Below are positions 13,143 through 57,283 of a stretch of DNA of 64,000 nucleotides, piece by piece. Position numbers and translations under genes: made by a program. Below the pieces are notes generated by a model. That model saw only the letters and a program-made list of their open reading frames with translations. It made no database searches and was not told the origin of the DNA. Source of the stretch: Pseudonocardiaceae bacterium (GTDB lineage Bacteria > Actinomycetota > Actinomycetes > Mycobacteriales > Pseudonocardiaceae); contig JBHEMR010000192.1 of NCBI GenBank assembly GCA_046262495.1, positions 2,678-66,677 on the forward strand, given 5' to 3'. Position 1 is the first letter of the stretch, and each line of letters opens with the position of its first letter.

Positions 13143-13145
13143 GTG

Positions 13146-14222: not shown

Positions 14223-14549
14223 ATGAACGCCCAGTTCCTCCCGCTGCTGCTCATCGCCGCGCTCGCCGTGCTGCTGATCATGAACACCCGTCGGCAGAAG
14301 CGAGCGATAGCCGACGCGCAGCGGTTACAAAAGTCGCTGGTCAACGGCGATCGGGTGGTGACCACCTCCGGTCTGCACGCAACCGTCGTAGGCAGCGCGG
14401 AAGACACCACGATCGAGTTGGAGATCGCTCCGGGAGTCCGTACCAAGTGGTTGCGCGCCGCCATCCGAGAAAAGATCATTACAGCGGACCCGGGTAGCGC
14501 GCCGCTGGCTGCGCCCGCCGACGGCAGCGCTCGCACCGACGACTCCTGA
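14223..14549 (+). CDS. yajC: preprotein translocase subunit YajC
   Basis: Single N-terminal TM followed by GDRVVTTSGLHATVV, the YajC core; upstream of secDF. Confidence 0.85.
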   Translation: MNAQFLPLLLIAALAVLLIMNTRRQKRAIADAQRLQKSLVNGDRVVTTSGLHATVVGSAEDTTIELEIAPGVRTKWLRAAIREKIITADPGSAPLAAPADGSARTDDS

Positions 14550-14727
14550 CCGACTTGGTGCGGGGCGGTACGCTCCCGCATCCGATCCCAGTGCTCGCGT
14601 CTGATCAGGGCGCTGGAACAGTGAAGACTGTGGCCGGGTCGCCGGTGCTGGCGTCCGGCGCACTGAGCCGTGAACGACGCTGAGATGTAAACGACACTGA
14701 GCCGTTGATTGAGGAGAACCACTCACC

Positions 14728-31091: not shown

Positions 31092-31285
31092 TCGCGGCAA
31101 CACGCCTCCCAGACGCCAGTGGCGCACCCCAGGCAGAAGTGCTCCTCGTCTGCGACTTGCCCACGGCCTGGAGAGTTGCGATCATGAGCGCACATGGATC
31201 AGCAGGCTCGCTCCAGGTTCGTGGTGTAGCGCTGGTGTGACGCAGAATCCGCTGTTGACGCGTCGTCGACATTGCGTAGGCATCC

Positions 31286-41913: not shown

Positions 41914-41951
41914 CCGTTGTCTGTCCACAACCACTCCGCCATCCACATCTG

Positions 41952-42614
41952 ATGTCCGAACCGGCCGGTCCGTCGACGTGCGCCGGGCATCCTGCGGGCG
42001 TGGGCGGTGTGTGGGTAGCAGTGGCGGGAGCCGTTGCAGGAACCGGGGGAGCGATGGTGCTGCGCCGGCTTCCCCGGGGTGTCCGGGTACCGGTGCCGGT
42101 CTGCACCGTGGCGGTGGCCGTACTGTGGGCGGTGGTCGGCGAACGGGCGAGCGAGGGTCTACCCGTGTGGTGGTGGCCGGTTCCGCTGGTTCTCGGCTGG
42201 GCTGGCGTGCTGCTGGCAAGTGCCGACCTGATTGCCCGACGCCTACCAGACGCACTGACGTTGCCAGCCTATCCGGTAGTGGCGGTCCTGCTTGTCGCTG
42301 CCGCGGTCGGTGCTGGCAATAGTGAGGCACTAGCTCGCGCCACCGCCGGCGGGTTGCTGTGGGTCGGCGGCTATGCCGCAGTGCGTCTCGTCGCACCGGG
42401 TGCTCTAGGTGGCGGAGACGTCAAACTCGCCGGCAGCCTGGGTGCACTCGCTGCCGCGACGTCCTGGCCCGGGCTGCTGCTGGCGGTACTGGCAGCAAAC
42501 GTGATAACCGTCGCCATCGCCGGCCCGGCCCGGCTACTGGGTTACCGCGATGTGCCCCACGGGCCGGCGATGCTCGCGTCGGTATGGCTGGTCGTGCTAC
42601 ATCCACCGGGGTAA
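41952..42614 (+). CDS. A24-family prepilin peptidase-like membrane protein
   Basis: Polytopic membrane protein with GGGDVKL and the second Asp-region pattern. Start at MSEPAG (ATG 41952). Confidence 0.7.
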   Translation: MSEPAGPSTCAGHPAGVGGVWVAVAGAVAGTGGAMVLRRLPRGVRVPVPVCTVAVAVLWAVVGERASEGLPVWWWPVPLVLGWAGVLLASADLIARRLPDALTLPAYPVVAVLLVAAAVGAGNSEALARATAGGLLWVGGYAAVRLVAPGALGGGDVKLAGSLGALAAATSWPGLLLAVLAANVITVAIAGPARLLGYRDVPHGPAMLASVWLVVLHPPG

Positions 42615-42811
42615 TCGCTGAAGCATATTCGTGTGAGTTTGCGCAAGTTGTCTAACACTGCGCGATGACTCCATCACCCAAAAAGGTGACCCGTAACGGC
42701 ACCGACACTCGCCCGCAATGTGGTCGTCACAAACGGTTCTTACCGTGCACCGCAGGAACTCGTCGTTAAGCCGCCGTTACCCTCGCCGATCCCGGCGCGA
42801 GAGGAGTCATT

Positions 42812-44074
42812 ATGACCAGATTACCTACGAGAGGGCGTCCGGTGCGTGCGGTCGCCATCCTCGTGGTCGCGGGGCTCACGCTAGCCGGCTGCGGGAGCCG
42901 GGTCGGCGATTCCGCTGCGAGTGGCTCTCCGGCAACCTCCTGCGTTGACACCTCAGGTAGCACGGTGAAGGTCGGATTCCTCAACTCCCTGTCGGGCACC
43001 ATGGCGATCAGTGAGAAGACTGTGCACGACTCGCTGGCCCTGGCTGCTGAACAGATCAACGCCAGTGGCGGCGTGCTCGGCAAGAAATTGCAGGTCGTCA
43101 GTGAAGACGGTGCGTCAGAGCCCACCATTTTCGCGGAGAAGGCCACCAAGCTGATCAGTTCCGACTGTGCGGCTGCGGTCTTCGGTGGCTGGACGTCGTC
43201 GTCCCGCAAGGCGATGCTTCCCGTGTTCGAGGGTGCGAACTCGCTGCTGTTCTATCCGGTGCAATACGAAGGCCTCGAGGCGTCCCCCAATATCTTTTAC
43301 ACCGGAGCAACTACCAACCAGCAGATCGTGCCCGCGCTGGACTACCTGAAGCAGAAGGGTATCAAGTCACTGTTCCTGGTGGGCTCCGATTACGTCTTCC
43401 CGCGGACCGCGAACAAGGAGATCAAAGCCTACGCCAAGGCCAACGGCATGGAGGTCAAGGGTGAGGAATACGCTCCACTCGGCTACACTGACTTCGCGAC
43501 GATCGTCAATAAGGTGAAATCGGCAGGGGCGGGCGCGGTGTTCAACACGCTCAACGGTGACTCGAACGTCGCGTTCTTCAAGGAGTACCGCAACGCCGGT
43601 TTGACCCCGGCCACGATGCCGGTGGTGTCGGTGTCGATCGCCGAGGAGGAGATTAACGGCATCGGTCTGGACAACGTGCTAGGACAGCTGACCGCTTGGA
43701 ACTACTACCAGACCATCGACTCTCCTAAGAACACGGCCTTCGTGCAGGCATTCAAGGCCAAGTACGGCCAGAGTCGAGTGACCTCCGATCCGATGGAGGC
43801 GGCCTACACCTCACTGTTCCTGTGGAAGGCAATCGTGGAGAAGGCGAAGTCGTTCACAACCGACGACATCCGCAAAGCCGCAGGCGGTGTGAGCTACGAC
43901 GCTCCAGAGGGAACCGTCACGGTCAACGGTGAAAATCACCACATCGCGAAGACAGCACTGATCGGCAAGGTGGGTGCGGACTCGCTGATTCACACCGAGT
44001 GGAGTTCCGGTGCCCCGGTCGAGCCGGATCCCTTCCTCAAGAACTACGACTGGGCCAAGGGCCTGACCGGCTGA
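42812..44074 (+). CDS. urtA: urea ABC transporter substrate-binding lipoprotein UrtA
   Basis: Lipobox LAGC. LSGTMAISE, VFGGWTSSSRKA and YPVQYEG are UrtA signatures. SD GAGAGGAG upstream. Confidence 0.9.
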   Translation: MTRLPTRGRPVRAVAILVVAGLTLAGCGSRVGDSAASGSPATSCVDTSGSTVKVGFLNSLSGTMAISEKTVHDSLALAAEQINASGGVLGKKLQVVSEDGASEPTIFAEKATKLISSDCAAAVFGGWTSSSRKAMLPVFEGANSLLFYPVQYEGLEASPNIFYTGATTNQQIVPALDYLKQKGIKSLFLVGSDYVFPRTANKEIKAYAKANGMEVKGEEYAPLGYTDFATIVNKVKSAGAGAVFNTLNGDSNVAFFKEYRNAGLTPATMPVVSVSIAEEEINGIGLDNVLGQLTAWNYYQTIDSPKNTAFVQAFKAKYGQSRVTSDPMEAAYTSLFLWKAIVEKAKSFTTDDIRKAAGGVSYDAPEGTVTVNGENHHIAKTALIGKVGADSLIHTEWSSGAPVEPDPFLKNYDWAKGLTG

Positions 44075-44086
44075 AAGGACGACGGC

Positions 44087-44971
44087 ATGCAAGCCCTGTT
44101 CAGCCAGCTGGTGGCCGGCCTCTCGCTGGGTTCGGTTCTGTTGCTTGCCGCCCTCGGGCTTGCGCTGACGTTCGGCCAGATGGGCGTGATTAATATGGCC
44201 CACGGCGAGTTCATGATGGCGGGTGCCTATACGGCCTTCGTGGCCCAGGGCTTGATTGCTGACGCGGGAACCTCGCTGCTGCTGGCTATCCCGCTCGGTT
44301 TCCTGGTTGGTGGCGTGATGGGGGTGGTCCTGGAAGCCACCCTGATCCGTCGGATGTATCACCGCCCCTTGGACACCCTGCTTGTGACATGGGGAGTATC
44401 ACTGATCTTGCAGCAGGCCGCTCGCGACATCTTCGGTGCCCCCAACGTCGACGTCCGCGCCCCAAGCTGGCTATCAGGCAGCGTCAACATCGGGGTCACC
44501 CACGTGCCGGCGGCCCGGCTGTTCATCCTGGTGCTGGCAGCGGCCGCCGTGGTCGGGCTGTCCCTATTGCTGAAGATGACGGCGCTGGGGCGCCGGATCC
44601 GCGGAGTGGTGCAGAACCGCGACTTGGCCGAGACCGTCGGCATCTCCACCCGGAGCACCGACCGGCTCACGTTCTTTATCGGTTCCGGCCTGGCTGGAAT
44701 CGCCGGTGTGGCGCTCACCCTCCTCGGCTCGACTGGCCCCACCCTCGGTACCAGCTACATCGTCGATGCCTTCCTGGTTGTGGTCGCAGGCGGTATCGGG
44801 CAGATCAAGGGTGCAGTGATCGCGGCATTCGGCCTGGGTCTGTTGCAAGCGACGTTCGAATACTCGACGACAGCAAGCGTTGCCAAGGTTATGGTCTTCG
44901 TCGTGGTTGTGGTCTTTTTGCAGATCCGGCCACAGGGCATCTTCAGCATTCGGACCAGGAGCCTGGCATGA
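44087..44971 (+). CDS. urtB: urea ABC transporter permease UrtB
   Basis: LivH-type permease; INMAHGEF motif. Confidence 0.9.
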   Translation: MQALFSQLVAGLSLGSVLLLAALGLALTFGQMGVINMAHGEFMMAGAYTAFVAQGLIADAGTSLLLAIPLGFLVGGVMGVVLEATLIRRMYHRPLDTLLVTWGVSLILQQAARDIFGAPNVDVRAPSWLSGSVNIGVTHVPAARLFILVLAAAAVVGLSLLLKMTALGRRIRGVVQNRDLAETVGISTRSTDRLTFFIGSGLAGIAGVALTLLGSTGPTLGTSYIVDAFLVVVAGGIGQIKGAVIAAFGLGLLQATFEYSTTASVAKVMVFVVVVVFLQIRPQGIFSIRTRSLA

Positions 44972-46155
44972 TCGATACCAGCGCGCAAGTCAGGGGAAAG
45001 AATAAGCACAGCTACGTCGCTGTCTTGGGTTTCGCGCTGGGCGCCGTGGCATTGCTGGTGGCCGCCCCTGCTATGCTCTCAGACTTTCGTCTTTCGCTAT
45101 TAGGCCGGTTCGTCTGTTATGGGATCGTGGCGGTTGGCATCGGTCTGGCTTGGGGCCGCGGCGGCATGCTCACTTTGGGGCAAGGCGTATTCTTTGGTTT
45201 GGGTGGTTACGCGATGGCGATCCACCTTAAACTCGCCGATGCCGGACCCTCCGGGGTGCCCGATTTTATGCGGCTCTACGGGTCGGGCCACCTGCCCATC
45301 TGGTGGGAACCATTCCGATCCCCTGTCGTGACCCTGCTCGGAGTGGTCTTTATTCCCTCATTGGTTGCCTATGGTCTCGGTACCGCGATCTTCCGTAGGC
45401 GGGTTCGCGGCGCATATTTCGCCATTTTGTCGCAGGCGTTGGCGGCAGCCTTCGCGATACTGCTAATCGGTCAGCAAACCACCACCGGTGGGACGAACGG
45501 CCTCAATGGATTCCGCTCGTTCTTCGGCTTCAATCTGTTCGATCCGATAAACAAGCGTATGCTGTTCTTCATCGCCGCGGTCACCCTGTTGGTGATGCTG
45601 GTCATCGTCTGGCAGCTCTACCGCTCCCGGTACGGGGAGCTGCTCATCGCGGTCCGGGATCAGGAGGAGCGGGTCCGATTCCTGGGCTATGATCCGGCCA
45701 ACATCAAGGTTGTGGCGTACGTGTTGGCGGCGGCGATGGCCGGCATCGCGGGTGCGTTGTTCGTACCCATCGTGGGAATCATCTCCCCAGCCAGCGTCGG
45801 AGTCGTCCCCTCGATCGCCTTCCTGATCGGGGTAGCCATCGGTGGCCGTGCCACGCTGTTCGGTCCGGCACTCGGGGCTATCGTAGTAGCCTGGGCCCAA
45901 ACGGCGCTCTCAGAGAGTTTTCCGTCGTTCTGGAGTTACTTCCAAGGGGCACTGTTCGTTCTGGTGATCGCCTTCCTGCCCGCCGGGCTGTCGTCAGTGA
46001 ATCTGTTGCGGGGGTTATCGCTGCGCAGACGGCGCGCCGGTAACCGAACCGATGGAACCGAGCCGCCACCGCCGCCGCGGTCACTTGATGCGGTGCGTCC
46101 ACCCCCGCCGGAACCCGGCCTTTCCGGGGTCAGCGCTGGATCGGAGGCCGGGTGA
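44968..46155 (+). CDS. urtC: urea ABC transporter permease UrtC (Pro-rich C-terminal tail)
   Basis: ATGA overlap with urtB. LivM-type permease (GMLTLGQGVFFGLGGY). The ORF-track extension 44389-44967 is out-of-frame overlap with urtB. Confidence 0.9.
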   Translation: MIDTSAQVRGKNKHSYVAVLGFALGAVALLVAAPAMLSDFRLSLLGRFVCYGIVAVGIGLAWGRGGMLTLGQGVFFGLGGYAMAIHLKLADAGPSGVPDFMRLYGSGHLPIWWEPFRSPVVTLLGVVFIPSLVAYGLGTAIFRRRVRGAYFAILSQALAAAFAILLIGQQTTTGGTNGLNGFRSFFGFNLFDPINKRMLFFIAAVTLLVMLVIVWQLYRSRYGELLIAVRDQEERVRFLGYDPANIKVVAYVLAAAMAGIAGALFVPIVGIISPASVGVVPSIAFLIGVAIGGRATLFGPALGAIVVAWAQTALSESFPSFWSYFQGALFVLVIAFLPAGLSSVNLLRGLSLRRRRAGNRTDGTEPPPPPRSLDAVRPPPPEPGLSGVSAGSEAG

Positions 46156-46910
46156 TGACAATAGACGCGAAGCACGACTACTTGGAACTGTCCGAAGTGC
46201 GGGTGGTGTTCGACGGGTTCGTCGCTGTCGATGGGGTTTCCATGACGGTGCGCCACGGCGATCTGCGGTTCCTCATCGGGCCCAACGGTGCAGGCAAGAC
46301 CACGCTCGTCGACGCGGTCACCGGATTGGCCCCAGCAACCGGGTCGGTCCGGTTCGGCCGGACGGAACTGATCGGCAAGAAGGTGCACCGGATCGCCCGG
46401 TTGGGGGTCGGGCGTACCTTCCAGACGGCCAGTGTCTTCGAGGAGCTGACCGTGCTGCAGAACCTCGATATCGCGGCAGGCGCAGGTCGCGCTGCGCTGT
46501 CGCTGCTGCGCCGCCGCTCGTCGGTGCCACCGGCGGTCGAGGACGCGATGGACACTGTGGGCCTATCCGCGCAGCGGGACCGCCAAGCAGGTGCGCTTGC
46601 GCACGGCCAGAAGCAGTGGCTGGAGATCGGCATGTTGCTGGTGCAAAACTCGCGGGTACTGTTGCTGGACGAGCCGGTGGCCGGGATGAGCGCCGACGAG
46701 CGGGTCCAGACTGGCGAACTGCTGCGCCGGATCGGCGCCGAGCGCACCGTCGTGGTGGTCGAGCACGACATGGAGTTCATGCGGTCCTTTGCCAACTCGG
46801 TCACCGTGCTGCATGCCGGAAAAGTGCTCAGCGCCGGCACGGTCGCGCAGGTGCAGGCCGACCCAAAGGTGCAAGAGGTCTACCTCGGCCGGGCGGAGGT
46901 TGTGCAGTGA
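46152..46910 (+). CDS. urtD: urea ABC transporter ATP-binding protein UrtD
   Basis: Walker A GPNGAGKTT, signature-like region, Walker B LLLDEP. Confidence 0.9.
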   Translation: MMTIDAKHDYLELSEVRVVFDGFVAVDGVSMTVRHGDLRFLIGPNGAGKTTLVDAVTGLAPATGSVRFGRTELIGKKVHRIARLGVGRTFQTASVFEELTVLQNLDIAAGAGRAALSLLRRRSSVPPAVEDAMDTVGLSAQRDRQAGALAHGQKQWLEIGMLLVQNSRVLLLDEPVAGMSADERVQTGELLRRIGAERTVVVVEHDMEFMRSFANSVTVLHAGKVLSAGTVAQVQADPKVQEVYLGRAEVVQ

Positions 46911-47623
46911 CATTGACGTTGGATATGGCGACGTTGGACATGACCGACATCCATGTGGGCTACGGACGAACCACCGTGGTGCACGGCGCGACCATCGAGG
47001 TACCGCCCGGCGGGGTGACTGCCGTGATGGGACACAACGGTGCCGGCAAGACGACCCTGCTGCGAGCCGCAGTCGGGCTCCTCCAGCCCCGCGCCGGGCG
47101 GATCATGTTCGACGGCGAGGACATCACCCGGATGCGACCCAACGAGCGCGTCAAGCGCGGCCTGGGCTACGTGCCGCAGGGACAGCAATGCTTCCCACAA
47201 CTGACCACTCAGGAGAACCTGCAACTCGTAGCGGACACCCGGCGAGGCGGCAATAAGCTGATCGCCGAGATGCTGGACCTCTTTCCGGCGTTGGGGGGGC
47301 TCTTGGCACGTCGCGCCGGCCTGCTGTCCGGTGGTCAGCGACAGCAACTGGCGATCGCCCGGGCACTGATCACCCAGCCGCGGCTGCTGATCCTGGACGA
47401 GCCGACCGAGGGCATCCAGCCGTCCGTGGTGGCGGAGATCGAGCAGACGATCCTGTCGTTGACCTCCTGCATGGGTCTGTCAATCCTGCTGGTCGAACAA
47501 CACGTGGGATTCGCCCTCGCCGCGGCGAGCCGCTACTACGTCATGGAAGCGGGCCGGATCACCTCTACCGGCGCCGGCGGTGCCGACGCCCACGCCGATG
47601 TCCGAGCCGCCATGGCGATCTGA
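46907..47623 (+). CDS. urtE: urea ABC transporter ATP-binding protein UrtE
   Basis: GTGA overlap with urtD. GHNGAGKTT, LSGGQRQ, LILDEP. Confidence 0.9.
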   Translation: MTLTLDMATLDMTDIHVGYGRTTVVHGATIEVPPGGVTAVMGHNGAGKTTLLRAAVGLLQPRAGRIMFDGEDITRMRPNERVKRGLGYVPQGQQCFPQLTTQENLQLVADTRRGGNKLIAEMLDLFPALGGLLARRAGLLSGGQRQQLAIARALITQPRLLILDEPTEGIQPSVVAEIEQTILSLTSCMGLSILLVEQHVGFALAAASRYYVMEAGRITSTGAGGADAHADVRAAMAI

Positions 47624-47835
47624 GAACTAACCTGCCGCGCCGTGCCGGGAATGATCGGGGCGCACAAGTGGTTGTATGGGATGTCCGGGCCGGGTGGATT
47701 GTGTCCCCCGGGTCCACTAAAAACTGCCACCGCGGACGATCGTACGGCTGAAGCCGCGGTGTGCCCTTCGCCGAGAGGTGACCAGCACACTCGGCCCGGA
47801 CCCGCTTCGCCCGGCGACGATAAGGATGGCAAGCC

Positions 47836-48144
47836 ATGAAGGGTGATCGCACAGAGATTGTCATCGACGCCGGCGGTACCACCCGGACATACGAGATCGA
47901 AGCCACCCGTAATGGTCGGCGGGTGGAGATCACCCACGGTCGCGGCATCGTGGAGGTCACCGAGGTCACCCGTGGCGGCACTCCGATACGCACCGCTCGA
48001 TTCATGGCCTCCCGGGTCCTCGCCCTGGTCGAGCATCCCGCTGCCCGACCAGCAATGGACGAGGTCAAGCCAGTTACGCCGGTCGTTCCGCAACCTCGGG
48101 TAGGTGGCAGCGCCGCTGTTCTTCAACCCGCCGAAGTGATGTGA
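47836..48144 (+). CDS. small hypothetical protein between the urt and ure operons
   Basis: 102-aa ORF with AAGGA 9 nt upstream of the ATG. The N-terminal two thirds are beta-rich (TRTYEIEATRNGRRVEITHGRGIVEVTEVTRGG) with reasonable third-position G/C. The C-terminal third has weaker codon bias. No recognisable family. Confidence 0.4.
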   Translation: MKGDRTEIVIDAGGTTRTYEIEATRNGRRVEITHGRGIVEVTEVTRGGTPIRTARFMASRVLALVEHPAARPAMDEVKPVTPVVPQPRVGGSAAVLQPAEVM

Positions 48145-48204
48145 CAGTCATACTTGATGACCCATACTCATTGATCGCCGCAGAGCGGGTGAGGAGGGGT
48201 CGAC

Positions 48205-48507
48205 ATGCTGCTGTCCCCGCATGAGCAGGAAAAGCTTCTCGTCCACGTGGCCGGCCAGCTGGCCAGAGAACGCCGGGCCAGGGGATTGCGACTTAACTAC
48301 CCTGAGGCTGTTGCGTTGATCACGTCGTGGGTGTTGGAGCGAGCGCGGGACGGCCGTAGCGTCGCCGATCTCATGGCGGAAGGCCAGCGGGTGCTCAGCC
48401 GGCAGGACGTCATGGAGGGCGTGCCGGAAATGATCTCTTCGGTGCAGGTCGAGGCGACCTTCCCGGACGGCACGAAACTTGTCACCGTGCACCGGCCAAT
48501 CCAGTGA
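48205..48507 (+). CDS. ureA: urease subunit gamma
   Basis: [12 protein letters not shown]...[10 protein letters not shown]...[15 protein letters not shown] is canonical UreA. Confidence 0.95.
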
Positions 48508-50570
48508 CCGACCGGCCCGGGTCACCGGGTGAACTGCTGCTCTTCGGTGAATCGGTCGTGCTGGGGCCGCAGGCCGGTAGTGAGCTGGTCGTGCTGAACA
48601 CCGGCGACCGGCCCATTCAAGTCGGGTCGCACTACCACCTCGCCGCGGCGAACCCGGCGCTGGAAATGGACCGCGCAGCCGCCACCGGAATGCGGTTGGC
48701 GGTGCCGGCCGGTACGTCGGTGCGCTTTGAACCCGGCATCGAACGGGTGGTGCGGGTTGTGCCGCTGGGTGGCACCCGTACTGTGCCCGGCCTGCGACTG
48801 GATGCACCCGATCCCAGCGCGGCAGCTCGGAGAACCGCCAGCCCAGGCCGGTGGACTGTCGAGCGCAGCCGCTACGCCGCCCTCTACGGTCCCACCGAGG
48901 GCGACCGGCTACGGCTGGCCGACACGAACCTGCTCGTGGAGGTTACCGAGGACCGCTGCCGCGGGCCGCACGGCGGGGACGAGGCGGTCTTCGGCGGCGG
49001 CAAAGTGATCCGCGAGTCGATGGGGCAGGCCCGGGCTTCGCGAGCGGACGGTGCAGCGGACCTGGTAATCACCGGCGCGGTCGTGCTGGACCACTGGGGG
49101 GTGGTCAAGGCTGACATTGGGGTGCGAGACGGCCGGATCGTCGGGCTGGGTAAGGCCGGGAACCCGGACATTATGGACGGCGTGCATTCCGCGCTGGTCA
49201 TCGGCCCGGGGACCGAGGTGATCGCCGGCAACGGGATGATCCTGACCGCCGGCGCGGTGGACTGCCATGTGCATCTGATCAGCCCGCAGCAGGTGCCCGA
49301 GGCGCTGGGATCGGGCGTCACCACCTTGATCGGCGGCGGCACCGGACCCGCCGAGGGCACCAAGGCGACCACCGTGACGCCCGGCGCCTGGTACCTGGCT
49401 CGAATGCTGGAGTCCCTTGATGCGCTTCCCGTGAACATCGCGCTGCTGGGTAAGGGCAACACGGTGGGCGAACCGGCGCTGTACGAGCAGGTCGCGGCCG
49501 GGGCCAGCGGTTTCAAGCTGCACGAGGACTGGGGATCCACCCCAGCGGCGATCGACGCCTGCCTGCGCGTTGCCGATGACACCGGTGTGCAGGTGGCGAT
49601 CCACACCGACACCCTCAACGAGGCCGGTTACGTCGCTGACACGCTGGCCGCGATCGGCGGCCGAACCATCCACGCTTACCACACCGAAGGGGCTGGTGGT
49701 GGCCACGCGCCGGACATCATCACCGTCGCAGCGCAGCCGAACGTGTTGCCCAGCTCCACCAATCCGACCCGCCCGCACACCGTGAACACCCTCGATGAGC
49801 ACCTCGACATGCTCATGGTCTGCCATCACCTCAACCCCGCCGTCCCGGAGGACCTGGCGTTCGCAGAGAGCCGGATCCGGCCGTCCACCATCGCGGCTGA
49901 GGACCTGCTGCATGACCTCGGGGCCATCTCGATGATCGGGTCGGACTCCCAGGCGATGGGCCGGGTCGGCGAGGTGATCGTCCGAACCTGGCAGACCGCG
50001 CATGTCATGAAGCGCCGGGGCGGGGCCCTGGCCGGGGACGCGGAAACCTCGGACAACTTGCGGGCGCGGCGATATGTGGCCAAGTACACGATCTGCCCGG
50101 CCGTCGCGCATGGGCTCGACGGTGAGGTCGGCTCGGTCGAAGTGGGTAAGCTCGCCGATCTGGTGTTGTGGCAACCGGCCTTCTTCGGGGTGCGGCCGAA
50201 CGTTGTCATCAAGGGCGGCATGATCGCTTGGGCAGCGATGGGGGACTCCAATGCCTCCATCCCGACCCCGCAGCCGGTGCTGCCGCGGCCGATGTTCGGG
50301 GCTGCCGCGGTGACCGCCGCCGCCACCTCGGTGCACTTCGTGGCTCCGGCAGCGGTGCAGGGCGGCCTCGCCGACCGGCTGGCGGTGCGGCGCAGGCTGG
50401 TGGCGGTGCGCGACACGCGGGCGTTGGGCAAAGCTGACATGCCGCACAATGATGCGCTCCCGCGCATCGAGGTGGATCCGGAAACGTTCACCGTCCGGAT
50501 CAACGGAGAAGTGGTCGAACCCGCTCCAGCGGAAGAGCTCCCGATGGCCCAACGCTACTTTCTGTTCTAA
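48504..50570 (+). CDS. ureC: urease beta-alpha fusion protein (UreB domain fused in frame to UreC)
   Basis: Residues 1 to about 105 form a UreB domain ([24 protein letters not shown]). A linker follows ([18 protein letters not shown]). The remainder is a full UreC ([52 protein letters not shown]). No stop or in-frame start separates the two parts. Confidence 0.9.
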
Positions 50571-51259
50571 TGACGGTGCTGGCGTCGCTGTTGTTGGCCG
50601 ATTCCCGGTTGCCCACCGGAGGCCACGCACACTCCGGCGGGGTGGAGGCCGCGGTCGAGCGCGGTCTGGTGTGTGATGAATCCGACCTCGCCCTCTACCT
50701 TGCCGGCCGGCTGCGGGGTACGGGTTCGGTGGTCGCTGCGGTCGCTGCGGCCGGCTGCGTGCTGGCTGCCAGCATCCCGCCGGTGGACTGGGGGTGCTGG
50801 GACGCCGCGGTCAGTGCCCGTACACCGTCGGCCGCCGCCCGGGAAGCGTCCCGAGCGCAGGGTGTGACGCTTCTGCGTACTGCCCGCCGGGTCTGGCCGT
50901 CCGCTGCTTTGGAGGCGCTGGGTCAGACCCCCCGTCCGCACCACCCGCTGGTGCTCGGTGCCGTAGTAGCCGCCACTGGAGATGGTGCCAACACGGCCGC
51001 GTTGCTCGCCTTGCACCACCTGCTCAGCGGGGCCTGCGCGGCCGCAGTAAGGCTGCTAGGACTGGACCCGATCGCGGTCGCCGCCGTGCAGGCGCGCGCG
51101 AGCCGGTCAGCTGCGCAGGTCGGTTTGCGCGCGGCTGGCGTGGGGCGCGAGGCCGTTGTCCAGCAGGACACCCGGCTGCTGCCTAGCACTGGTACCCCAC
51201 TGCCGGAGCTGCTGGCCGAACTGCACGCCCGCACGGAGGTGACTCTCTTTGCCTCGTGA
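50570..51259 (+). CDS. ureF: urease accessory protein UreF
   Basis: [18 protein letters not shown] is the UreF N-terminal signature; the ATG overlaps the ureC stop by 1 nt. Confidence 0.85.
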
Positions 51260-51869
51260 GCATCGGGCCTTGCGGATCGGCATCGGAGGGCCGGTCGGCA
51301 GCGGCAAAACCGCGCTGGTGGCGGCGCTATGCCGAACGCTGCGCGACGAGCTGTCGCTGGTGGTAGTCACCAATGACATCTACACCACCGAAGACGCCGA
51401 CTTCCTGCGTACCCACGGGGTGCTGCCCCGCGAGCGAATAAGGGCGGTGCGCACCGGCTGCTGCCCGCATACCGCAATCCGCGATGACATCACGGCCAAC
51501 CTCGACGCGGTGGAGGAGCTCACCGCGCGCTACGACCCCGACCTGGTGTTGGTGGAAAGCGGCGGGGACAATCTCACCGCCATTTTCAGCTACGGCCTGA
51601 TCGATGCGCAGATCTTCGTCCTCGACGTCGCCGGTGGCGACAAGGTGCCCCGCAAGGGTGGACCTGGAGTCACCCGCTCCGACCTACTAGTGGTCAACAA
51701 GACCGATCTCGCCCCGTTGGTGGGCGCGGACCTGGACGTGATGCGCCGGGATGCCGTGGCAGTTCGAGGCGGCCGGCCTACCGTCCTGATCTCCCTGCGG
51801 GAGCAGCCCGACGCGGGACCGGTGGTGACGTGGCTACTCAGCCAACTGCGGTCAGCCGTGCCGCGGTGA
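51249..51869 (+). CDS. ureG: urease accessory GTPase UreG (no His-rich N-terminus)
   Basis: [10 protein letters not shown]-loop, CPH metal motif ([10 protein letters not shown]), ESGGDNL, NKTDL. TTG start overlaps the ureF 3' end. Confidence 0.9.
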
Positions 51870-51879
51870 GGGGCTGCCG

Positions 51880-52632
51880 GTGAGGGGCCGGGCCGAGCTC
51901 ACGGTCGAACCCGGACCTGAGGCACCCCGTCTGCGGTGGCGCAGCGCCGCACCGGTGGTGCTGCGCCCGACCGGTCCACACCGGGTGCACCTAGTGCAGG
52001 CCGCTGGTGGTCCGCTGGGCGGCGACGACCTGGCGTTGGACGTCCACCTCGGCGCCGGCTCATCCCTGCAGCTGCGCTCGACGGCAGCCATGGTGGTGCA
52101 GGCGGGCCGCCCTGCGGCGGCCGCGCGGTGGACTGTGGCTGCGGCGCTTGCACGTGGTGCCGTCCTGGACTGGCAGCCCGAGCCGACCGTCGTCTGCGAT
52201 GGTGCGGAGCTGCACAGTCGGATCACCGTTGCCCTGCAGCGGGGGGCCTGCGCAGTCCTGCGCGAGGAGGTGGTGCTCGGGCGAGCAGGCCAGCGCGGCG
52301 GCCGCTTTGTCGGCGAGCTCGCGATCGAGCTGGAGGGCGCTCCCCTGCTGGTGCACACCCTGCTGCTGGACGGTGCTGACCCTGCACTCGCGGGCCCCGC
52401 CGGCACTGGCGGCGCCCGCGTCGTCGGAATGCTCGCGGTCGTGGGGGAGGGGGCCTGCGACCCACCGCAGAGCGCCGGCGAGGAACCGGGACTGCGTTGG
52501 GGGTGTTCAGCGCTGGATGGTCCAGGCTGGCTATTGCTCGCCCTCGGCGATAACCCCGTAGCCGTGTCGACGCTGCTAGACCGTGCCGCGCGGGCGCGAT
52601 CTGCTGGCCGGCGTTCTTACCATGCGGTGTGA
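51880..52632 (+). CDS. ureD: urease accessory protein UreD
   Basis: Position after ureG and UreD-like pattern (GGPLGGDDLALDV...). Lower conservation is typical of UreD. Confidence 0.8.
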   Translation: MRGRAELTVEPGPEAPRLRWRSAAPVVLRPTGPHRVHLVQAAGGPLGGDDLALDVHLGAGSSLQLRSTAAMVVQAGRPAAAARWTVAAALARGAVLDWQPEPTVVCDGAELHSRITVALQRGACAVLREEVVLGRAGQRGGRFVGELAIELEGAPLLVHTLLLDGADPALAGPAGTGGARVVGMLAVVGEGACDPPQSAGEEPGLRWGCSALDGPGWLLLALGDNPVAVSTLLDRAARARSAGRRSYHAV

Positions 52633-53071
52633 TGAAGTGTGCCGTCGAAGACGGTGATCGCGTGACCGGTGAGGTGGACCCGGTCGCCGTGGACGGCGGT
52701 GCGGACCAGGCCCGTCCGGGCGGAGGCTTGCAGTCCGGTGAGGCCGTCCCGGCCCAGGCGGCCTGACCAGTAGGGGGCCAGGGCGGTGGCGATGACCGCG
52801 CGGGCGCCGTCGCGGCGGGCGAGGTGGCTCAGCGCGGTGAGATCCGGATCCAGGCTGCGGACGTCTGCCTCGTCGGGGACACGGCGAGCACGTCGCCGAG
52901 GGCGCCGGTTCCGTAGGCGGCGTCGGGCTTAGCGCGCAGCGCTTCGGGTAGACCATCGGGGGTGGATATCGCGGTGGTAGGCGCGGCGGGGAAGTTCAAG
53001 GTGATGGCGCCGCCGTTGGCGGTAGACCATAGGACCGCGGCGAAGCGGTAGGCGCCGGTTTTGCGACAGCA
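52615..53071 (-). pseudogene. PhzF-family isomerase pseudogene (N-terminally truncated, frameshifted, internal deletion)
   Basis: The minus strand reads ...ITLNFPAAP..PDGLPEALRAKPDAAYGTGALGDVLAV in one frame. After a frameshift near 52880 it continues VPDEADVRSLDPDLTALSHLARRDGARAVIATA|LAPYWSGRLGRDGLTGLQASARTGLVRTAVHGDRVHLTGHAITVFDGTL. The expected SRFFAP...EDPVTGSAH block before ALAPYW and about the first 100 residues are absent. Confidence 0.6.
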
Positions 53072-53152
53072 GGTGATACGACTGAAACCGATCGGTTACA
53101 AGATGGTCACAGTGGTGTCGTGTGATAGTTCTGACTCACTCGTGTGAGTGAG

Positions 53153-53254
53153 GCGCACCTAGGGTTCCGTCGCTGCCCGCAGCGGGTCTGGACCGAGAGG
53201 TGCAGGCGGGCAGTGCACTGCCCGCTCCACGGCGGGATAGAAGCCCGGGAGGTC
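53153..53254 (+). promoter_or_regulatory. guanidine-I (ykkC/yxkD) riboswitch aptamer
   Basis: GCACC-UAGGGUUCCG-U(CGCUG-CCCG-CAGCG)GGUCUGGACCGAGAG-GUGC (P1 GCACC/GGUGC). P2 is GCGGGCAG-UGCA-CUGCCCGC. Then ACGG-CGGGAUAGAAGCCCG-GGAGG. All hallmark conserved blocks are in the canonical order, 50 nt upstream of the ureohydrolase GTG. Confidence 0.8.
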
Positions 53255-53306
53255 AGCCACGCCCGGCTGCCTCGCCGCCGGGCGCCGTGGACGCGGAGGC
53301 CGCACC

Positions 53307-54425
53307 GTGGAGGAACTGCACAACAACTACGGCCCGGAGGCGCGATACGCCGTCGAGGCGGAAGCAGCGCTGCCGACGACGAAATGGGAACAGGAGATCG
53401 CCAGGGGCCTCGAATTGGGCCTACAAGGCGCTGACTCGATCGTCGACCGAAGGATCCCCACCTTCTCCCGTGGCGAGTTGCCGCATTTCGCTGGCATCAA
53501 CACCTTTCTCAAGGCCCCTTACGTCGAGGACGTCCGCCGCTGCGGCGAGTACGACGTGGCGGTGCTCGGCGCCCCCTTCGACGGGGGCACCACCTACCGA
53601 TCCGGAACCCGCTTCGGTCCCCAGGGCATCCGCAAAATCTCCGCGTTGTACGGGCCGTACAGTTTCGAGCTCGGCGTCGATCTGCGAGAGTCGATCACCA
53701 TTGCCGATCTCGGCGACGTGTTCACCATCCCCGGCAACATCGAGAAGACTTTCGACCAGATCTCCAAGGCGGTCGGGCACGTCTTCGCCTCCGGCGCCTT
53801 TCCGGTGGTACTGGGTGGCGACCATTCCATCGGCTACCCGACCACCCGCGCGGTCGCGGAACACCTAGGTGGCGGCAAGCTCGGCATCATCCACTTCGAT
53901 CGCCACGTCGACACCCAGGAAACCGACCTCGACGAGCGGATGCACACCACGCCGTGGTTTCACGCCACGGACATCCCCAACGTGCCGCCGCAGAACCTGG
54001 TGCAGATCGGCATCGGCGGTTGGCAGGCGCCGCGTCCCGGGGTGCAGGTCGGCCGGGAGCGCGGCACCACGATCATGACCGTAACCGACTGCGTGGAGAT
54101 GGGTATTGGGGAAGCCGCGCAGCATGCCCTCGATGTCGCGTGGGACGGCACCGACGCCGTCTGGCTGTCCTTCGACGTCGACTGCCTCGACGCCGCGTTC
54201 GTGCCCGGCACGGGATGGCCTGAGCCCGGCGGCTTCCTGCCCCGCGAGGTGCTCAAGTTCATTCAACTCATCGCCGCGTGCCCGTTGTCAGGCATCGAAG
54301 TCGTGGAGTGCTCCCCGCCCTACGACAACGCGGAGATCACTGCGCTCATCGCGACCCGGGTCATCTGCGACACCCTCGGTTGCCTTGTGCGCGCCGGTCA
54401 CCTACCACGAAAGGCGTCGACATGA
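53307..54425 (+). CDS. arginase/agmatinase-fold ureohydrolase (agmatinase / guanidino-acid hydrolase / guanidine hydrolase candidate)
   Basis: GGDHS, HFDRHVD (DxHxD) and SFDVDCLD metal-ligand motifs. About 50 aa N-terminal extension. SD GGAGG 7 nt before GTG 53307. Confidence 0.9.
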   Translation: MEELHNNYGPEARYAVEAEAALPTTKWEQEIARGLELGLQGADSIVDRRIPTFSRGELPHFAGINTFLKAPYVEDVRRCGEYDVAVLGAPFDGGTTYRSGTRFGPQGIRKISALYGPYSFELGVDLRESITIADLGDVFTIPGNIEKTFDQISKAVGHVFASGAFPVVLGGDHSIGYPTTRAVAEHLGGGKLGIIHFDRHVDTQETDLDERMHTTPWFHATDIPNVPPQNLVQIGIGGWQAPRPGVQVGRERGTTIMTVTDCVEMGIGEAAQHALDVAWDGTDAVWLSFDVDCLDAAFVPGTGWPEPGGFLPREVLKFIQLIAACPLSGIEVVECSPPYDNAEITALIATRVICDTLGCLVRAGHLPRKAST

Positions 54426-55957
54426 GTACCCCGATCCTCACCACGAGCCCGACCGGCGGCCCGGACGCCGAGGATCTGCGCAGCATCGGCTACCGGCAGG
54501 AGCTACACCGTCGGCTCGGTGCCTTCTCTTCCTTCGCCGCTGGATTCTCCTTCGTCTCCATTCTCACCACGGTGTTCCAGCTCTTTGCCCTGGGCTACTC
54601 CTTCGGCGGTCCGACGTTCTTCTGGACCTGGCCGATGGTGTTCGTCGGGCAATTGTGCGTGGCATTGGTCTTCGCTGAGCTGGCGGTGAGCTGGCCGCTG
54701 GCCGGGTGTATCTACCAGTGGTCGCGCCGACTGGCCGGTGAGACTGTCGGCTGGTTCGCCGGCTGGGCGATGATGATCGGGTACATCGTCAGCGTGGCCG
54801 CCATCGGCATCGCCTTGCAGGTCGTGCTGCCCTCGGTGTGGTCGGGGTTCCAGATCGTCGGCACCGACCCGTCGATCACTTCGGCGTCCGGCGCGGCCAA
54901 CGGGATCCTGCTGGGCTCAGTGCTCATTGCGCTGGCCACCGTGATCAGCGCCGTCGGGGTGCGCTTCATGGCGTTGATCAACGGGATCGGTGTGACCTGC
55001 GAGCTAGTTGGTGTGGTGTTGCTGCTGGTGTTGCTCTTCGGCCATGCGCAACGAGGCCCCGAGGTGGTCACCAAGACGCTGAACGTATCCGGGAATAGCC
55101 CGTATCTGTACGCCTTCCTCGCTTCCACGTTGATGGCGGCTTATGTCATGTACGGCTTCGACAGCGCCGCGGAGCTGTCCGAGGAGACGGCTGCGCCACG
55201 GCGGGTGGTGCCTTCGGCGATCCTGCGGGCACTGTTGGTCTCCTTCGTCGGTGGCGGGTTCATGATCGTGGCTGCACTGATGGCGGCGCCTTCGTTGACC
55301 GACGGTCAGCTGTCCAGCGGCGGCATCGCCTATGTCATCACCAGCCAGCTCGATTCGACGCTCGGTCGCGCGCTGCTCGCGGTGGTTGCGATCTCTATCG
55401 TGTCTGCCTGTCTGGCGATCCAAAATTCGGCGTCGCGGGTGATGTTCAGCATGGCGCGTGATGGCCGGCTGCCCGGCGGGAGGTTGCTGGCCCGGGTCAG
55501 CCCGCAAACCGGGACGCCGATCCTCACCGGCATCGCGGTGGGGGCACTCGCGATCGGCGTGCTGCTGATCAACCTGGGTAATCCGGCGGCGTTCGCGGCA
55601 GTCACCAGCACCTCGGTGGTCATCGTGTATCTGGCGTATCTGCTGGTCACGGTGCCGGCCTTAGGTGCCCGACTGGGCCGGCGCCTGCCGCCGAAGCAGC
55701 CGGGCGGCTTCTCGCTCGGTCGCTGGGGGCTAGCGGTGAACCTGATCGCGGTGGCCTACGGCATAGCGATGATGGTGAACATCGCCTGGCCACGGCGGGC
55801 GGTGTACGACCCGGCGGGAACCAGTTGGGTGCTGCAGTACCTCGCGCTGCTGTTCGTCGCCGCGCTGGTGGTGGTCGGCGCGGCGGTGCATCGGGCGCTG
55901 CGTGGCGCACCCGCGCCGGCGTCCCTGACCGCAGCTACCGCCGTCGCTGAGGCCTGA
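54422..55957 (+). CDS. APC-superfamily amino acid/polyamine-type permease
   Basis: ATG 54422 overlaps the ureohydrolase stop (ATGA). About 12 TM helices with an APC-like N-terminal pattern (FSSFAAGFSFVSILT..., IYQWSRRLAG). Confidence 0.85.
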   Translation: MSTPILTTSPTGGPDAEDLRSIGYRQELHRRLGAFSSFAAGFSFVSILTTVFQLFALGYSFGGPTFFWTWPMVFVGQLCVALVFAELAVSWPLAGCIYQWSRRLAGETVGWFAGWAMMIGYIVSVAAIGIALQVVLPSVWSGFQIVGTDPSITSASGAANGILLGSVLIALATVISAVGVRFMALINGIGVTCELVGVVLLLVLLFGHAQRGPEVVTKTLNVSGNSPYLYAFLASTLMAAYVMYGFDSAAELSEETAAPRRVVPSAILRALLVSFVGGGFMIVAALMAAPSLTDGQLSSGGIAYVITSQLDSTLGRALLAVVAISIVSACLAIQNSASRVMFSMARDGRLPGGRLLARVSPQTGTPILTGIAVGALAIGVLLINLGNPAAFAAVTSTSVVIVYLAYLLVTVPALGARLGRRLPPKQPGGFSLGRWGLAVNLIAVAYGIAMMVNIAWPRRAVYDPAGTSWVLQYLALLFVAALVVVGAAVHRALRGAPAPASLTAATAVAEA

Positions 55958-55981
55958 CACTGCAACTGCAATCAAGGTGCG

Positions 55982-56047
55982 CGTCGTGAACTCGACAGGG
56001 CCCACGTTCTTAGCGAGCGGAACGTCGGTGGCGTCGAGTTCACGACG
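55982..56047. terminator. perfect 15-bp inverted repeat (36-nt loop) at the island/aroC junction; possible I-shaped terminator
   Basis: CGTCGTGAACTCGAC (55982-55996) pairs with GTCGAGTTCACGACG (56033-56047). No U-tract follows. Confidence 0.4.
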
Positions 56048-56104
56048 GATCTCGCAGACGATGCGGCAGCGTCATGGGCCGAGTGTGCGTGGCACGATGG
56101 CGCC

Positions 56105-57283
56105 ATGTTGCGGTGGATCACTGCTGGGGAATCGCATGGTCCCGCTCTGGTGGCTGTGCTGGAGGGCATGGTCGCCGGGGTTGAGGTGACCTCCAAGGAC
56201 ATCCAGGCTGAGCTGGCCCGTCGCCGGCTTGGTTACGGGCGTGGCGCCAGGATGAAGTTCGAGGCCGACGAGGTCGATCTCCTCGGAGGTATCCGGCACG
56301 GCCGAACGTTGGGCGGGCCGGTGGCGATCCGAATCGGCAACACCGAGTGGCCCAAATGGGAGACGGTGATGGCGGCCGATCCGGTGGACCCGGACGTGCT
56401 GGCCGCGCAATCGCGCAACGCGCCGCTGACCCGACCCCGGCCTGGGCACGCCGACCTCGCTGGCATGACCAAGTACGGCTTCGACGACGCTCGCCCGGTG
56501 CTGGAGCGGGCCAGTGCGCGGGAGACCGCTGCCCGGGTCGCGCTGGGCACTGTGGCCAAGGCGTTTCTGCTACAGGCATTAGGTGTTGAATTGCTATCTC
56601 ATGTGGTGTCGTTGGGGCAGGTAGACGCCCCTGTGGACGTGTTGCCCGGACCCGATGACCTGGAGCGGATCGATTCCAGTCCGGTCCGCGCGTTCACCGC
56701 AGATGCCTCAGCCGCGATGATCGCCGAAGTGGATGCGGCGAAACGGGACGGTGACACGCTGGGCGGCGTGGTCGAGGTTGTGGCGTATGGGCTCCCAGTG
56801 GGACTGGGCTCCTTCGTGCACGCCGACCGGCGGTTGGACGCTCGGCTGGCCGGCGCGCTGATGGGCATCCAAGCGATGAAAGGTGTGGAGGTCGGCGACG
56901 GGTTTGCCACCGCGCGCCGACGGGGCAGTGCTGCTCACGACGAGATGGTTCCTGGGCCCGACGGTGTGGTGCGGCGCACTAACCGGGCCGGTGGCCTAGA
57001 AGGTGGCATGACCAATGGAGAGGTGCTGCGCGTTCGGGTGGCGATGAAACCGATCTCCACGGTGCCTCGCGCGCTAGCCACAGTGGACGTCAGCACCGGC
57101 GAGGCGGCCGTTGCGATCAACCAGCGTTCCGACGTCTGCGCGGTGCCCGCCGCAGGTGTGGTGGCCGAGGCGATGGTCGCCCTCGTACTTGCCGACGCCG
57201 CCCTGGAGAAGTTCGGCGGTGACGCCTTGCCCGAGACCGTCCGCAATGTCCAGTCCTACCAAGACGCAAGTCGCCACGGTTGA
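56105..57283 (+). CDS. aroC: chorismate synthase
   Basis: [16 protein letters not shown]...[11 protein letters not shown] is the canonical AroC N-terminus. Confidence 0.95.

Follow-up and report, generated by a model that had tools for sequence, protein, structure and literature searches.

We analysed a 64,000-nt stretch of DNA from an uncultured soil bacterium of the Pseudonocardiaceae (JBHEMR010000192.1), referred to below as the window, the positions of which are used as coordinates. Between the gene for an A24 (prepilin-type) peptidase and aroC, the window contains 13.5 kb that carry gdmH, a gene for a guanidinase-type ureohydrolase, followed by a permease gene and preceded by a guanidine-I riboswitch, together with a urease operon and the urea transporter genes urtABCDE. 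On the basis of its sequence, we consider it probable (about 0.8) that this is a chromosomal nitrogen-scavenging region with a complete guanidinase route, controlled by the nitrogen regulator GlnR and by the riboswitch, and composed of modules that were gathered stepwise. It is a new actinobacterial example of the guanidinase pathway known from cyanobacteria and comammox Nitrospira, not a new kind of system. Guanidine has only lately been recognised as a natural nitrogen source and, to our knowledge, only two organisms, the one a cyanobacterium and the other a comammox Nitrospira, have been shown to use the hydrolytic guanidinase route.

In the model that we propose, guanidine would be brought into the cell by the APC permease, as we infer here, and homology suggests the steps that follow: the GdmH-type guanidinase, with a presumed Ni or Ni/Mn centre, would convert guanidine to urea and ammonium, the adjacent urease would convert urea to 2 NH3 and CO2, and UrtABCDE would import or recapture external urea. 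Through a GlnR-type box located shortly before the -10 sequence, the gdmH-permease promoter would respond to nitrogen limitation, and a similar box upstream of urtA predicts the same response there. The riboswitch would work as an ON switch, permitting expression only if guanidine is available and thus forming an AND gate with nitrogen limitation; bound guanidine would stabilise the 3' domain of the aptamer against a competing downstream hairpin. The linkage of the modules would result from selection for the shared pathway, without being obligatory.

The guanidinase-permease unit and its predicted control

Protein families were assigned by Pfam and NCBIfam profile searches and RNA families by Rfam. 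A genome scan for relatives of the enzyme gave at least 579 matches, the best 80 of which, one locus per species, form the comparison set (the 80 loci below, with L numbers where they have to be told apart); their gene neighbourhoods were mapped by tblastn using the window proteins. The elements of the unit, with the two promoter boxes, are as follows.

53073..53110, + strand: GlnR-type a-b-a-b box, GTGAT-n6-GAAAC-n6-GTTAC-n6-GTCAC, just upstream of the riboswitch leader
53133..53152, + strand: start of the leader, GACTCAC, pairing in a 5' hairpin with the GUGAG that directly precedes the aptamer
53148-53253, + strand: guanidine-I riboswitch aptamer (RF00442, 89.1 bits against a gathering score of 63, E 1e-14)
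53254..53306, + strand: expression platform, with a competing hairpin (53227-53290) and the Shine-Dalgarno sequence GGAGG (53295-53299)
53307-54425, + strand: gdmH, ureohydrolase (PF00491, 265 bits)
54422-55957, + strand: APC-superfamily permease (PF13520, PF00324)
42693..42730, + strand: candidate GlnR-type a-b-a-b box upstream of urtA, GTAAC-n6-GACAC-n6-GCAAT-n6-GTCAC

An initial annotation of this DNA had raised the possibility that free guanidine is the substrate of the ureohydrolase, as it is of GdmH, and homology supports this. When all PDB chains were searched, the window protein matched best the guanidinase of Nitrospira inopinata (PDB 9FEK; 84% identity over 364 residues, 728 bits) and Synechocystis Sll1077/GdmH (7ESR/7OI1; 66% identity over 359 residues, 568 bits). 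The third-best match, proclavaminate amidinohydrolase, reached 183 bits, and the agmatinases, guanidinobutyrase and guanidinopropionase of the PDB reached 133-166 bits. The metal-ligand motifs GGDHS, HFDRHVD and SFDVDCLD were identical to those of 9FEK. In a pairwise alignment, T96, H213, W304 and E334 of the window protein align with Thr105, His222, Trp313 and Glu344 of the N. inopinata enzyme, four residues to which a possible importance in the catalysis of guanidine hydrolysis has been ascribed. That enzyme hydrolyses guanidine, and no urea was formed from arginine, creatine or methylguanidine among the guanidino compounds tested (PMC11410670). These comparisons, together with the guanidine-I aptamer, identify the window ureohydrolase as a GdmH/guanidinase orthologue, not a generic agmatinase, and the homology is strong enough for guanidine hydrolysis to be expected of it.

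GdmH differs remarkably little between phyla: it shares 83-84% identity with its relatives in Nitrospira and 87-91% with those in Acidimicrobiia and Chloroflexota, which exceeds the identity of AroC within the Pseudonocardiaceae (80-82%). This would reflect either extreme constraint or movement of the riboswitch-gdmH unit between phyla.

The TGA of gdmH overlaps the ATG of the permease gene (ATGA, 54422-54425), in keeping with the translational coupling suggested in the initial annotation. The best NCBIfam match of the permease was TIGR03428, 'permease, urea carboxylase system' (660.2 bits against a cut-off of 740.45), and by this score it is a close relative of that family, not a member. From the riboswitch control alone, we infer that it imports guanidine. 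At the 80 loci, the 3' neighbour of gdmH was an NMT1-type ABC transporter in 36 cases and an APC permease of the window type in 13, while a sodium/solute symporter family (SSF) symporter took this place in L012 and on a Rubrobacter plasmid. The riboswitch-guanidinase unit thus appears widespread in soil Actinomycetota and in some Chloroflexota, with three alternative types of importer. Some of the carriers are in culture (Kutzneria sp. 744, Dactylosporangium fulvum, Pseudonocardia zijingensis and Lentzea alba), which makes the system experimentally tractable.

The guanidine riboswitch that had been noticed upstream of the ureohydrolase gene was recovered above the gathering score, with a match spanning positions 1-107 of the 107 of the RF00442 model; it was the sole Rfam family found in the 64-kb window, and gdmH begins 54 nt after its end. 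With a covariance model of our own, built from 58 sequences upstream of gdmH, we detected an aptamer ahead of the gene at 69 of the 80 loci, in nearly all cases at a distance of about 50-160 nt. In the alignment of the 58 sequences, 95.5% of the cells were paired, versus 29-55% in slid controls, and 13 pairs showed changes on both sides. Score and covariation thus identify the element as a guanidine-I riboswitch, whose response to the ligand is predicted.

In the unconstrained fold of the leader (minimum free energy -105.3 kcal/mol, versus -91.6 kcal/mol with the aptamer enforced, a cost of 13.7 kcal/mol), the 5' domain of the aptamer was kept and its 3' domain was replaced by the hairpin 53227-53290, as the downstream strand of the platform (to 53290) is able to pair with the 3' domain. 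Relatives have kept this competing hairpin, and L003 shows one compensatory pair in it. A translational switch by masking of the ribosome site is unsupported, because the Shine-Dalgarno sequence was equally accessible with and without the aptamer enforced. A canonical intrinsic terminator is also absent from the window leader; a T run was present in only 7 of 63 leaders. The competing hairpin and the unmasked Shine-Dalgarno sequence therefore favour attenuation over ribosome-site masking, and the folds make it somewhat probable that switching would occur by transcription attenuation, through a U-less or factor-dependent terminator. The GACTCAC motif, which is nearly invariant in 63 loci, pairs in both folds and belongs to a hairpin of 5-7 bp with a loop of 4-6 nt. 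This GACTCAC/GUGAG hairpin lies outside the Rfam model; it could mark the 5' end of the transcript, which we predict near 53133, contribute to stability or form an extra helix.

The box at 53073-53110 is closely followed by a -10-like sequence (GATAGT, 53124-53129), a placement expected of an activator site that overlaps the -35 region. Four half-site-like pentamers in an 11-nt register occurred at only two places on both strands of the 64 kb, namely this box and the one at 42693-42730, and the layout of both is that of a GlnR promoter box, for which the a-b-a-b consensus is gTnAc-n6-GaAAc-n6-GtnAC-n6-GAAAc (review PMC10704036). In 7 close relatives, the box upstream of the riboswitch has conserved half-sites and variable 6-nt spacers. 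To extend the comparison to 63 loci, we stacked them on the leader motif GACTCAC and counted strict half-sites (GnAAC or GTnAC). There were 19, 45, 18 and 52 hits at -60, -49, -38 and -27 from GACTCAC, respectively, and almost none elsewhere; two or more half-sites in the 11-nt register were found in 52 of the 63 loci versus 6 of 1240 control segments. GlnR is reported to exert positive control over urease operons in a Pseudonocardiaceae species (PMC10704036). We predict that it would activate both the gdmH-permease and the urtA promoters. The actinomycetotal unit thus appears tied to the global nitrogen regulator GlnR, a parallel to the combination of NtcA and riboswitch reported from Synechocystis. 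A literature search found no description of a GlnR box in front of a guanidine riboswitch, and both the box that closely precedes the riboswitch across Actinomycetota and the one upstream of urtA are new here.

Urease and urea transporter genes, and the assembly of the region

The gene content listed in the initial annotation (urtABCDE, a small open reading frame (ORF), ureA-ureBC-ureF-ureG-ureD, and the riboswitch with the ureohydrolase and permease genes) was recovered in full. The features that accompany the guanidinase unit, and the two backbone genes that bound the region from outside, are the following.

41823..42614, + strand: A24 (prepilin-type) peptidase gene (PF01478), left backbone boundary
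42812-44074, + strand: urtA (TIGR03407, 556.6 bits against a cut-off of 492.75)
44087-44971, + strand: urtB (Pfam)
44968-46155, + strand: urtC (Pfam)
46152-46910, + strand: urtD (Pfam)
46907-47623, + strand: urtE (Pfam)
47836-48144, + strand: orf102, a conserved 102-aa ORF with no Pfam or NCBIfam family
48205-48507, + strand: ureA (Pfam)
48504-50570, + strand: ureB-ureC fusion, one 688-aa ORF with Urease_beta and Urease_alpha (UreC NF009685, 1118 bits, cut-off 907)
50570-51259, + strand: ureF (Pfam)
51249-51869, + strand: ureG (Pfam; UreG TIGR00101, 264 bits, cut-off 204)
51880-52632, + strand: ureD (Pfam)
52623-53065, - strand: decayed PhzF-family gene (tblastn, the queries being intact PhzF proteins from L002 and L006)
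55982..56047, + strand: inverted repeat with 28-nt arms, 82% complementary, and a 10-nt loop, between the permease stop and aroC
56105..57283, + strand: aroC (PF01264, 390 bits), right backbone boundary

The urt block (42812..47623) comprises, besides urtA, two BPD_transp_2 and two ABC_tran genes, with the ends of urtB-E overlapping by 4 nt; by these matches it is a high-affinity urea ABC transporter. UreA, UreB, UreC, UreF, UreG and UreD were all recognised by their profiles, which identify ureA-ureBC-ureFGD as a urease with its accessory set. The operon (48205..52632) contains no ureE. The absence of UreE is common in actinomycetes. The ureB-ureC fusion is common to L001, L002, L006 and L086/L087, and in more distant loci the two genes appear unfused, judging from later match starts.

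Linkage was scored when a ure and/or urt gene was present within 10 kb of gdmH. The co-occurrence of the riboswitch-ureohydrolase unit with ure/urt in relatives, which had been proposed as a check on the functional link, was found in 13 of the 80 loci, which represent at least 8 distinct layouts, and once more on the Rubrobacter plasmid; these loci contradict the opposite expectation, that the module never co-localises with urease in relatives. Ure genes were near gdmH in 11 of the 80 loci, and 10 of the 50 loci with full flanks showed ure/urt linkage. The linked lineages are Pseudonocardiaceae, Dactylosporangium, Micromonosporaceae, Acidimicrobiia and Chloroflexota. In the window lineage, ure/urt lies on the same strand as gdmH, upstream and with a gap, and in three Dactylosporangium species ureD ends ~200 nt before the riboswitch. 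Ure/urt is divergent from gdmH in a Limnocylindrales genome; urt is convergent with gdmH in Solwaraspora and Rhizocola, as are urt and ure together in L071, and L069 has the order ure-gdmH-permease. The tightest arrangement was that of L036 (uncultured Acidimicrobiaceae, 9823-15664), where the riboswitch, gdmH, ureA, ureB/C, ureF, ureG and ureD lie on one strand with a 73-nt gap between gdmH and ureA. According to a 2025 review, urease genes are generally not under guanidine riboswitch control; if gdmH and ure of L036 are co-transcribed, urease would fall under it.

On the Rubrobacter indicoceani plasmid (L088:6756-14364), the riboswitch, gdmH (65% identity) and the SSF symporter gene are accompanied by a formamidase gene on the opposite strand and by ureA-ureB-ureC-ureF, which means that the guanidine-to-ammonia gene set travels on plasmids too. 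GdmH-like genes were also present on Sinorhizobium fredii megaplasmids. Antisense to the urease genes of the Rubrobacter plasmid (L088:12118-12407, - strand), there was a 92-bit match to the Rfam family '5_ureB_sRNA' (Helicobacter), which is probably conserved urease coding sequence and not a real small RNA.

By our own estimate, for a target of ~10 kb within 20 kb in a genome of ~8 Mb, linkage is expected by chance in ~0.4% of genomes. The observed linkage is recurrent and far above this value and is therefore selected, though a minority state. From the gene neighbourhoods, we regard the gdmH-ure/urt linkage as recurrent, not obligatory, and its repetition is genomic evidence for urea as an obligatory intermediate. 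A literature search found no description of actinobacterial gdmH-urease clusters.

The interval, which is bounded by the peptidase stop at 42614 and the aroC start at 56105, measures ~13.5 kb. It is preceded by a backbone of conserved order (ruvAB, secDF, relA, aspS, alaS, ruvX, mltG) and followed by aroC-aroK-aroB-aroQ-pepQ-efp-nusB. The earlier proposal that about 13 kb are interposed in this shikimate-region backbone is borne out by two genomes without the island, the AroC of which is 87-88% identical to that of the window: L083 has alaS-ruvX-mltG-A24 peptidase-aroC, with a gap of 13 nt between the last two genes, and L084 has mltG-aroE-aroC. As peptidase or aroE is joined directly to aroC in these genomes, the 13.5 kb are extra in the window.

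Other relatives carry parts of the region. L086/L087 have peptidase-orf102-ureA-ureBC-FGD, with urt absent. In L003 and L041, riboswitch-gdmH adjoins aroC, and no ure/urt was seen upstream of gdmH in the sequence covered (10 kb and 6.7 kb, respectively). In L004, a STAND NTPase gene occupies the spot upstream of gdmH. Since the layouts of L086/L087, L003/L041 and L083/L084 differ, the island is not one insertion; these layouts identify riboswitch-gdmH-permease, ure and urt as separate modules, gathered stepwise at a variable spot between peptidase and aroC. The identities of GdmH and AroC to the window proteins vary together (96/95% in L001, 96/93% in L003, 93/91% in L006 and 94/93% in L041), from which it follows that the junction of gdmH and aroC is old and has been passed on vertically in this lineage. 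The closest listed GdmH (93-96%) and AroC (91-96%) come from uncultured Pseudonocardiales/Pseudonocardiaceae genomes, and the AroC of named Pseudonocardia species is only 80-82% identical.

A mobile-element origin was rejected: we found no tRNA in the 64-kb window, no direct repeats flanking the island, and no integrase, recombinase or transposase among the family matches of the island genes. Relative to its relatives the island is, as far as the sequence can tell, an insertion, but no recognisable mobile element. Only its urt block has a lower GC content (0.59-0.64, versus ~0.67 for the window).

The decayed state of the PhzF gene, also noticed in the initial annotation, was evident by tblastn against the intact genes that L002 and L006 have at the equivalent place; the remnant has one frameshift and a 34-aa deletion, and its N-terminal ~98 aa (a third) are gone. 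In orf102, the differences from relatives fell mostly at third codon positions (17/22, 22/28, 23/32 and 25/27, i.e. 74-93%), and orf102 is therefore a real gene. It follows the peptidase gene in relatives, with or without urt. Its family comprises 5,503 hypothetical proteins, many of them in Pseudonocardiaceae, and it is not bound to urease elsewhere, as it adjoins unrelated genes in Geodermatophilus. The idea that it is a hidden nickel chaperone was rejected in view of the large hypothetical family, the unrelated neighbours in Geodermatophilus and the lack of Cys/His motifs.

Several observations weigh against our reading of the region. The permease is under the cut-off of its nearest curated family and only ~28-32% identical to the comammox permease. 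In the leader, there is no U tract in the expression platform (53254..53306), and the accessibility of the Shine-Dalgarno sequence is equal in both folds. The GlnR half-site criterion was picked post hoc, after inspection of the data, and in the window neither ureA nor orf102 had a GlnR-like register upstream. Clustering is the minority state, since 67 of the 80 loci have no ure/urt within 10 kb, and the 13 linked loci are phylogenetically non-independent.

The latter points bear on the possibility that the adjacency is fortuitous, independent modules having settled in one variable spot while a urease anywhere in the genome would serve equally. The region is indeed a mosaic (L003/L041 without ure/urt in the sequence covered, L004 with its STAND NTPase, L086 with ure and no urt), the decayed PhzF and, in relatives, unrelated genes lie between ureD and the riboswitch, most loci are unlinked, and urease is elsewhere in the characterised systems (PMC11410670). 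We nevertheless hold fortuity to be rather unlikely, because linkage appears repeatedly, in no fewer than 8 unrelated layouts and also on the Rubrobacter plasmid, far above the chance value, because ureABCFGD of L036 follow gdmH on the same strand after 73 nt, and because ureD ends so close to the riboswitch in Dactylosporangium. The module might also serve guanidine detoxification instead of nitrogen assimilation, with the permease exporting guanidine or carrying urea. Exporters are under the control of many guanidine riboswitches, expression of GdmH lessens the toxicity of guanidine to cyanobacteria, and the nearest family of the permease, the cut-off of which it does not reach, is named for urea carboxylase systems. 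Detoxification is made improbable by the GlnR-type promoter box, which would point to control by nitrogen limitation, by the three importer types that pair with gdmH in relatives (NMT1-type ABC, APC permease, SSF symporter), by the link to a high-affinity urea importer and urease, which suits scavenging, and by the characterised homologues, which support growth on guanidine as nitrogen source. Far less credible still is a mis-assigned Mn-dependent agmatinase or guanidino-acid hydrolase. Databases do label the family 'agmatinase', and NCBIfam agmatinase models were the best NCBIfam matches of the window protein, yet under their cut-offs (219.7 vs 302 and 160.7 vs 174.3); the PDB enzymes of these specificities scored several-fold lower than the guanidinase, the signature residues are conserved, and the guanidine-I riboswitch does not recognise guanidino metabolites (PMC11410670).

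Nickel supply to the guanidinase

In line with the initial annotation, which had noted that no dedicated HypA/HypB-like partner was present, no HypA/HypB-like gene was found near gdmH in the window or the 80 loci; with E. coli queries (tblastn, E<=10) only UreG was matched, the HypA query being weakly sensitive. A six-frame ORF scan for small CxxC...CxxC ORFs gave only off-frame noise, and no nickel transporter or nitrogen regulator was present among the assignable genes of the window. Comammox genomes have no HypA/HypB-like chaperones either, and the route by which their guanidinase is loaded with nickel has been called unclear; made in E. coli without helpers, this enzyme contained 0.42 Ni per subunit (PMC11410670). 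The missing chaperones outside cyanobacteria thus sharpen the question of how a nickel enzyme is loaded.

Many GdmH orthologues, mostly from Micromonosporaceae, have a natural His-rich N-terminal tail with 5-11 histidines (for example MGFHHHHHHHHQHH). They were found in L021, L022, L028, L030, L032, L035, L039, L044, L063 and L074, just upstream of position 10001, and the tail may be a built-in nickel-capture device. GdmH of the window lineage and the Nitrospira guanidinase lack such a tail. An anticorrelation between His-tail and urease adjacency, which would have spoken for nickel loading by UreFGD, was considered and dropped, as there was no clean pattern and L022, L026 and L037 have both. 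On the Rhodobacteraceae plasmid pSC52_3, the riboswitch, an ABC transporter and gdmH are followed by an overlapping gene for a 149-aa protein (L089:8127-8576), which has a His-rich N-terminus (MPHDHAPSGADHHHGAGHNHAHGDHLHSHG...) and belongs to no Pfam family. This protein is a candidate for a new nickel helper of guanidinase; no credible homologue was found in the actinobacterial loci.

Another possibility is that UreG, UreF and UreD, encoded next door, also insert nickel into the guanidinase, in place of GhaA/GhaB, the HypA/HypB-like maturases of the cyanobacterial enzyme. Consistent with this are the lack of HypA/HypB-like genes, the lack of a His-rich tail in the window GdmH, unlike orthologues of several lineages, the low nickel content of the comammox enzyme from E. 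coli with its unclear loading route (PMC11410670), and the direct flanking of gdmH by ureFGD in L013, L015, L026, L036 and L069. However, ure adjacency is exceptional (11 of the 80 loci), the 67 loci without ure/urt within 10 kb are also without HypA/HypB-like genes, and in L003 and L041, where gdmH adjoins aroC, the 6.7-10 kb covered upstream contain no urease. The site on which UreDFG act has a carbamylated lysine and belongs to a TIM-barrel amidohydrolase; it is structurally unrelated to the His/Asp site of the arginase fold. The His-rich tails and the 149-aa His-rich protein found elsewhere argue against one general urease-based route, and the shared pathway explains the linkage more simply. 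The computed evidence does not favour loading by UreDFG over simple pathway linkage, and we consider such loading in the window unlikely. The broader version, that UreD/UreF/UreG nickel both guanidinase and urease wherever GhaA/GhaB and the His tail are lacking (the window lineage and comammox Nitrospira), is slightly more doubtful. If true, a urease maturation machinery would for the first time be seen to serve a second enzyme of unrelated structure, the way in which the comammox guanidinase gets its nickel would be explained, and gdmH-ure clusters would represent a common unit of metallocentre assembly in addition to a shared pathway. A literature search found no paper testing or proposing the loading of guanidinase by UreFGD.

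Comparison with characterised systems, and further features of the window

The closest known counterpart is the operon of N. inopinata, which consists of a guanidine-I riboswitch, an APC permease gene and the guanidinase gene (Palatinszky et al., Nature 2024, PMC11410670; PDB 9FEK). Both are riboswitch-led two-gene operons for enzyme and APC permease, the enzymes are 84% identical with the same signature residues, HypA/HypB-like nickel chaperones are absent from both, and urease finishes the pathway. They differ in gene order (permease first in N. inopinata, enzyme first in the window), in the permeases, which share the low identity given above (~28-32%) and belong to different APC subfamilies, and in the place of urease, which is elsewhere in N. 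inopinata and adjacent in the window. The window also has the GlnR-type box, and its host, a heterotrophic actinobacterium, would use the nitrogen rather than gain energy by oxidising the ammonia.

Synechocystis sp. PCC 6803 has gdmH-ghaA-ghaB and gimABC (Wang 2021, PMC8390497; Funck 2022; PMC12704784). It shares with the window the GdmH orthologue (66%), urease as the downstream step, and the combination of a guanidine-I riboswitch and a nitrogen-status factor on one promoter, NtcA in the one case and, as predicted, GlnR in the other. The GhaA/GhaB maturases are present there and absent here; the window, having no ghaA/ghaB-like genes, therefore falls outside the cyanobacterial gdmH-ghaA-ghaB sub-type and resembles the comammox type. 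The C-terminal extension of the cyanobacterial enzyme is likewise missing from the window GdmH, as in N. inopinata. Import in Synechocystis is by an ABC transporter and in the window would be by an APC permease, while most actinobacterial relatives use the NMT1-type ABC transporter.

Guanidine carboxylase operons, which encode a urea-carboxylase-like enzyme, CgdAB, allophanate hydrolase and often a TIGR03428-type permease, are also under guanidine-I control and achieve the same net conversion of guanidine to ammonia, and the window permease is most similar to their family, though under the TIGR03428 cut-off. Their enzymes are absent from the window, where the route would be hydrolytic, ATP-free and dependent on urease. 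The GlnR-controlled ure/urt operons of Saccharopolyspora erythraea and Mycobacterium smegmatis resemble the window in having ureABC-FGD without ureE, urtABCDE and an a-b-a-b-type box upstream of urtA (PMC10704036). They lack the ureB-ureC fusion and the riboswitch-gated urea-producing step of the window.

The inverted repeat at 55982-56047 takes up most of the 147-nt gap between the permease gene and aroC and has no T run; it may be an operon boundary, a U-less terminator or a regulatory hairpin. Inserts of ~3.4 kb were present between aroC and aroK in L001 (13950-17332) and L006 (13866-17281), the window having no insert there, and the backbone region is therefore an insertion hot spot in this lineage. 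The rest of the window contains housekeeping genes, several genes without family match and a siderophore cluster of the NRPS-independent (NIS) type. This cluster (31280-36542), upstream of the alaS block, comprises two IucA/IucC-family synthetase genes and a gene for a pyridoxal phosphate (PLP)-dependent decarboxylase, and L084 has a similar siderophore gene set on the opposite strand.

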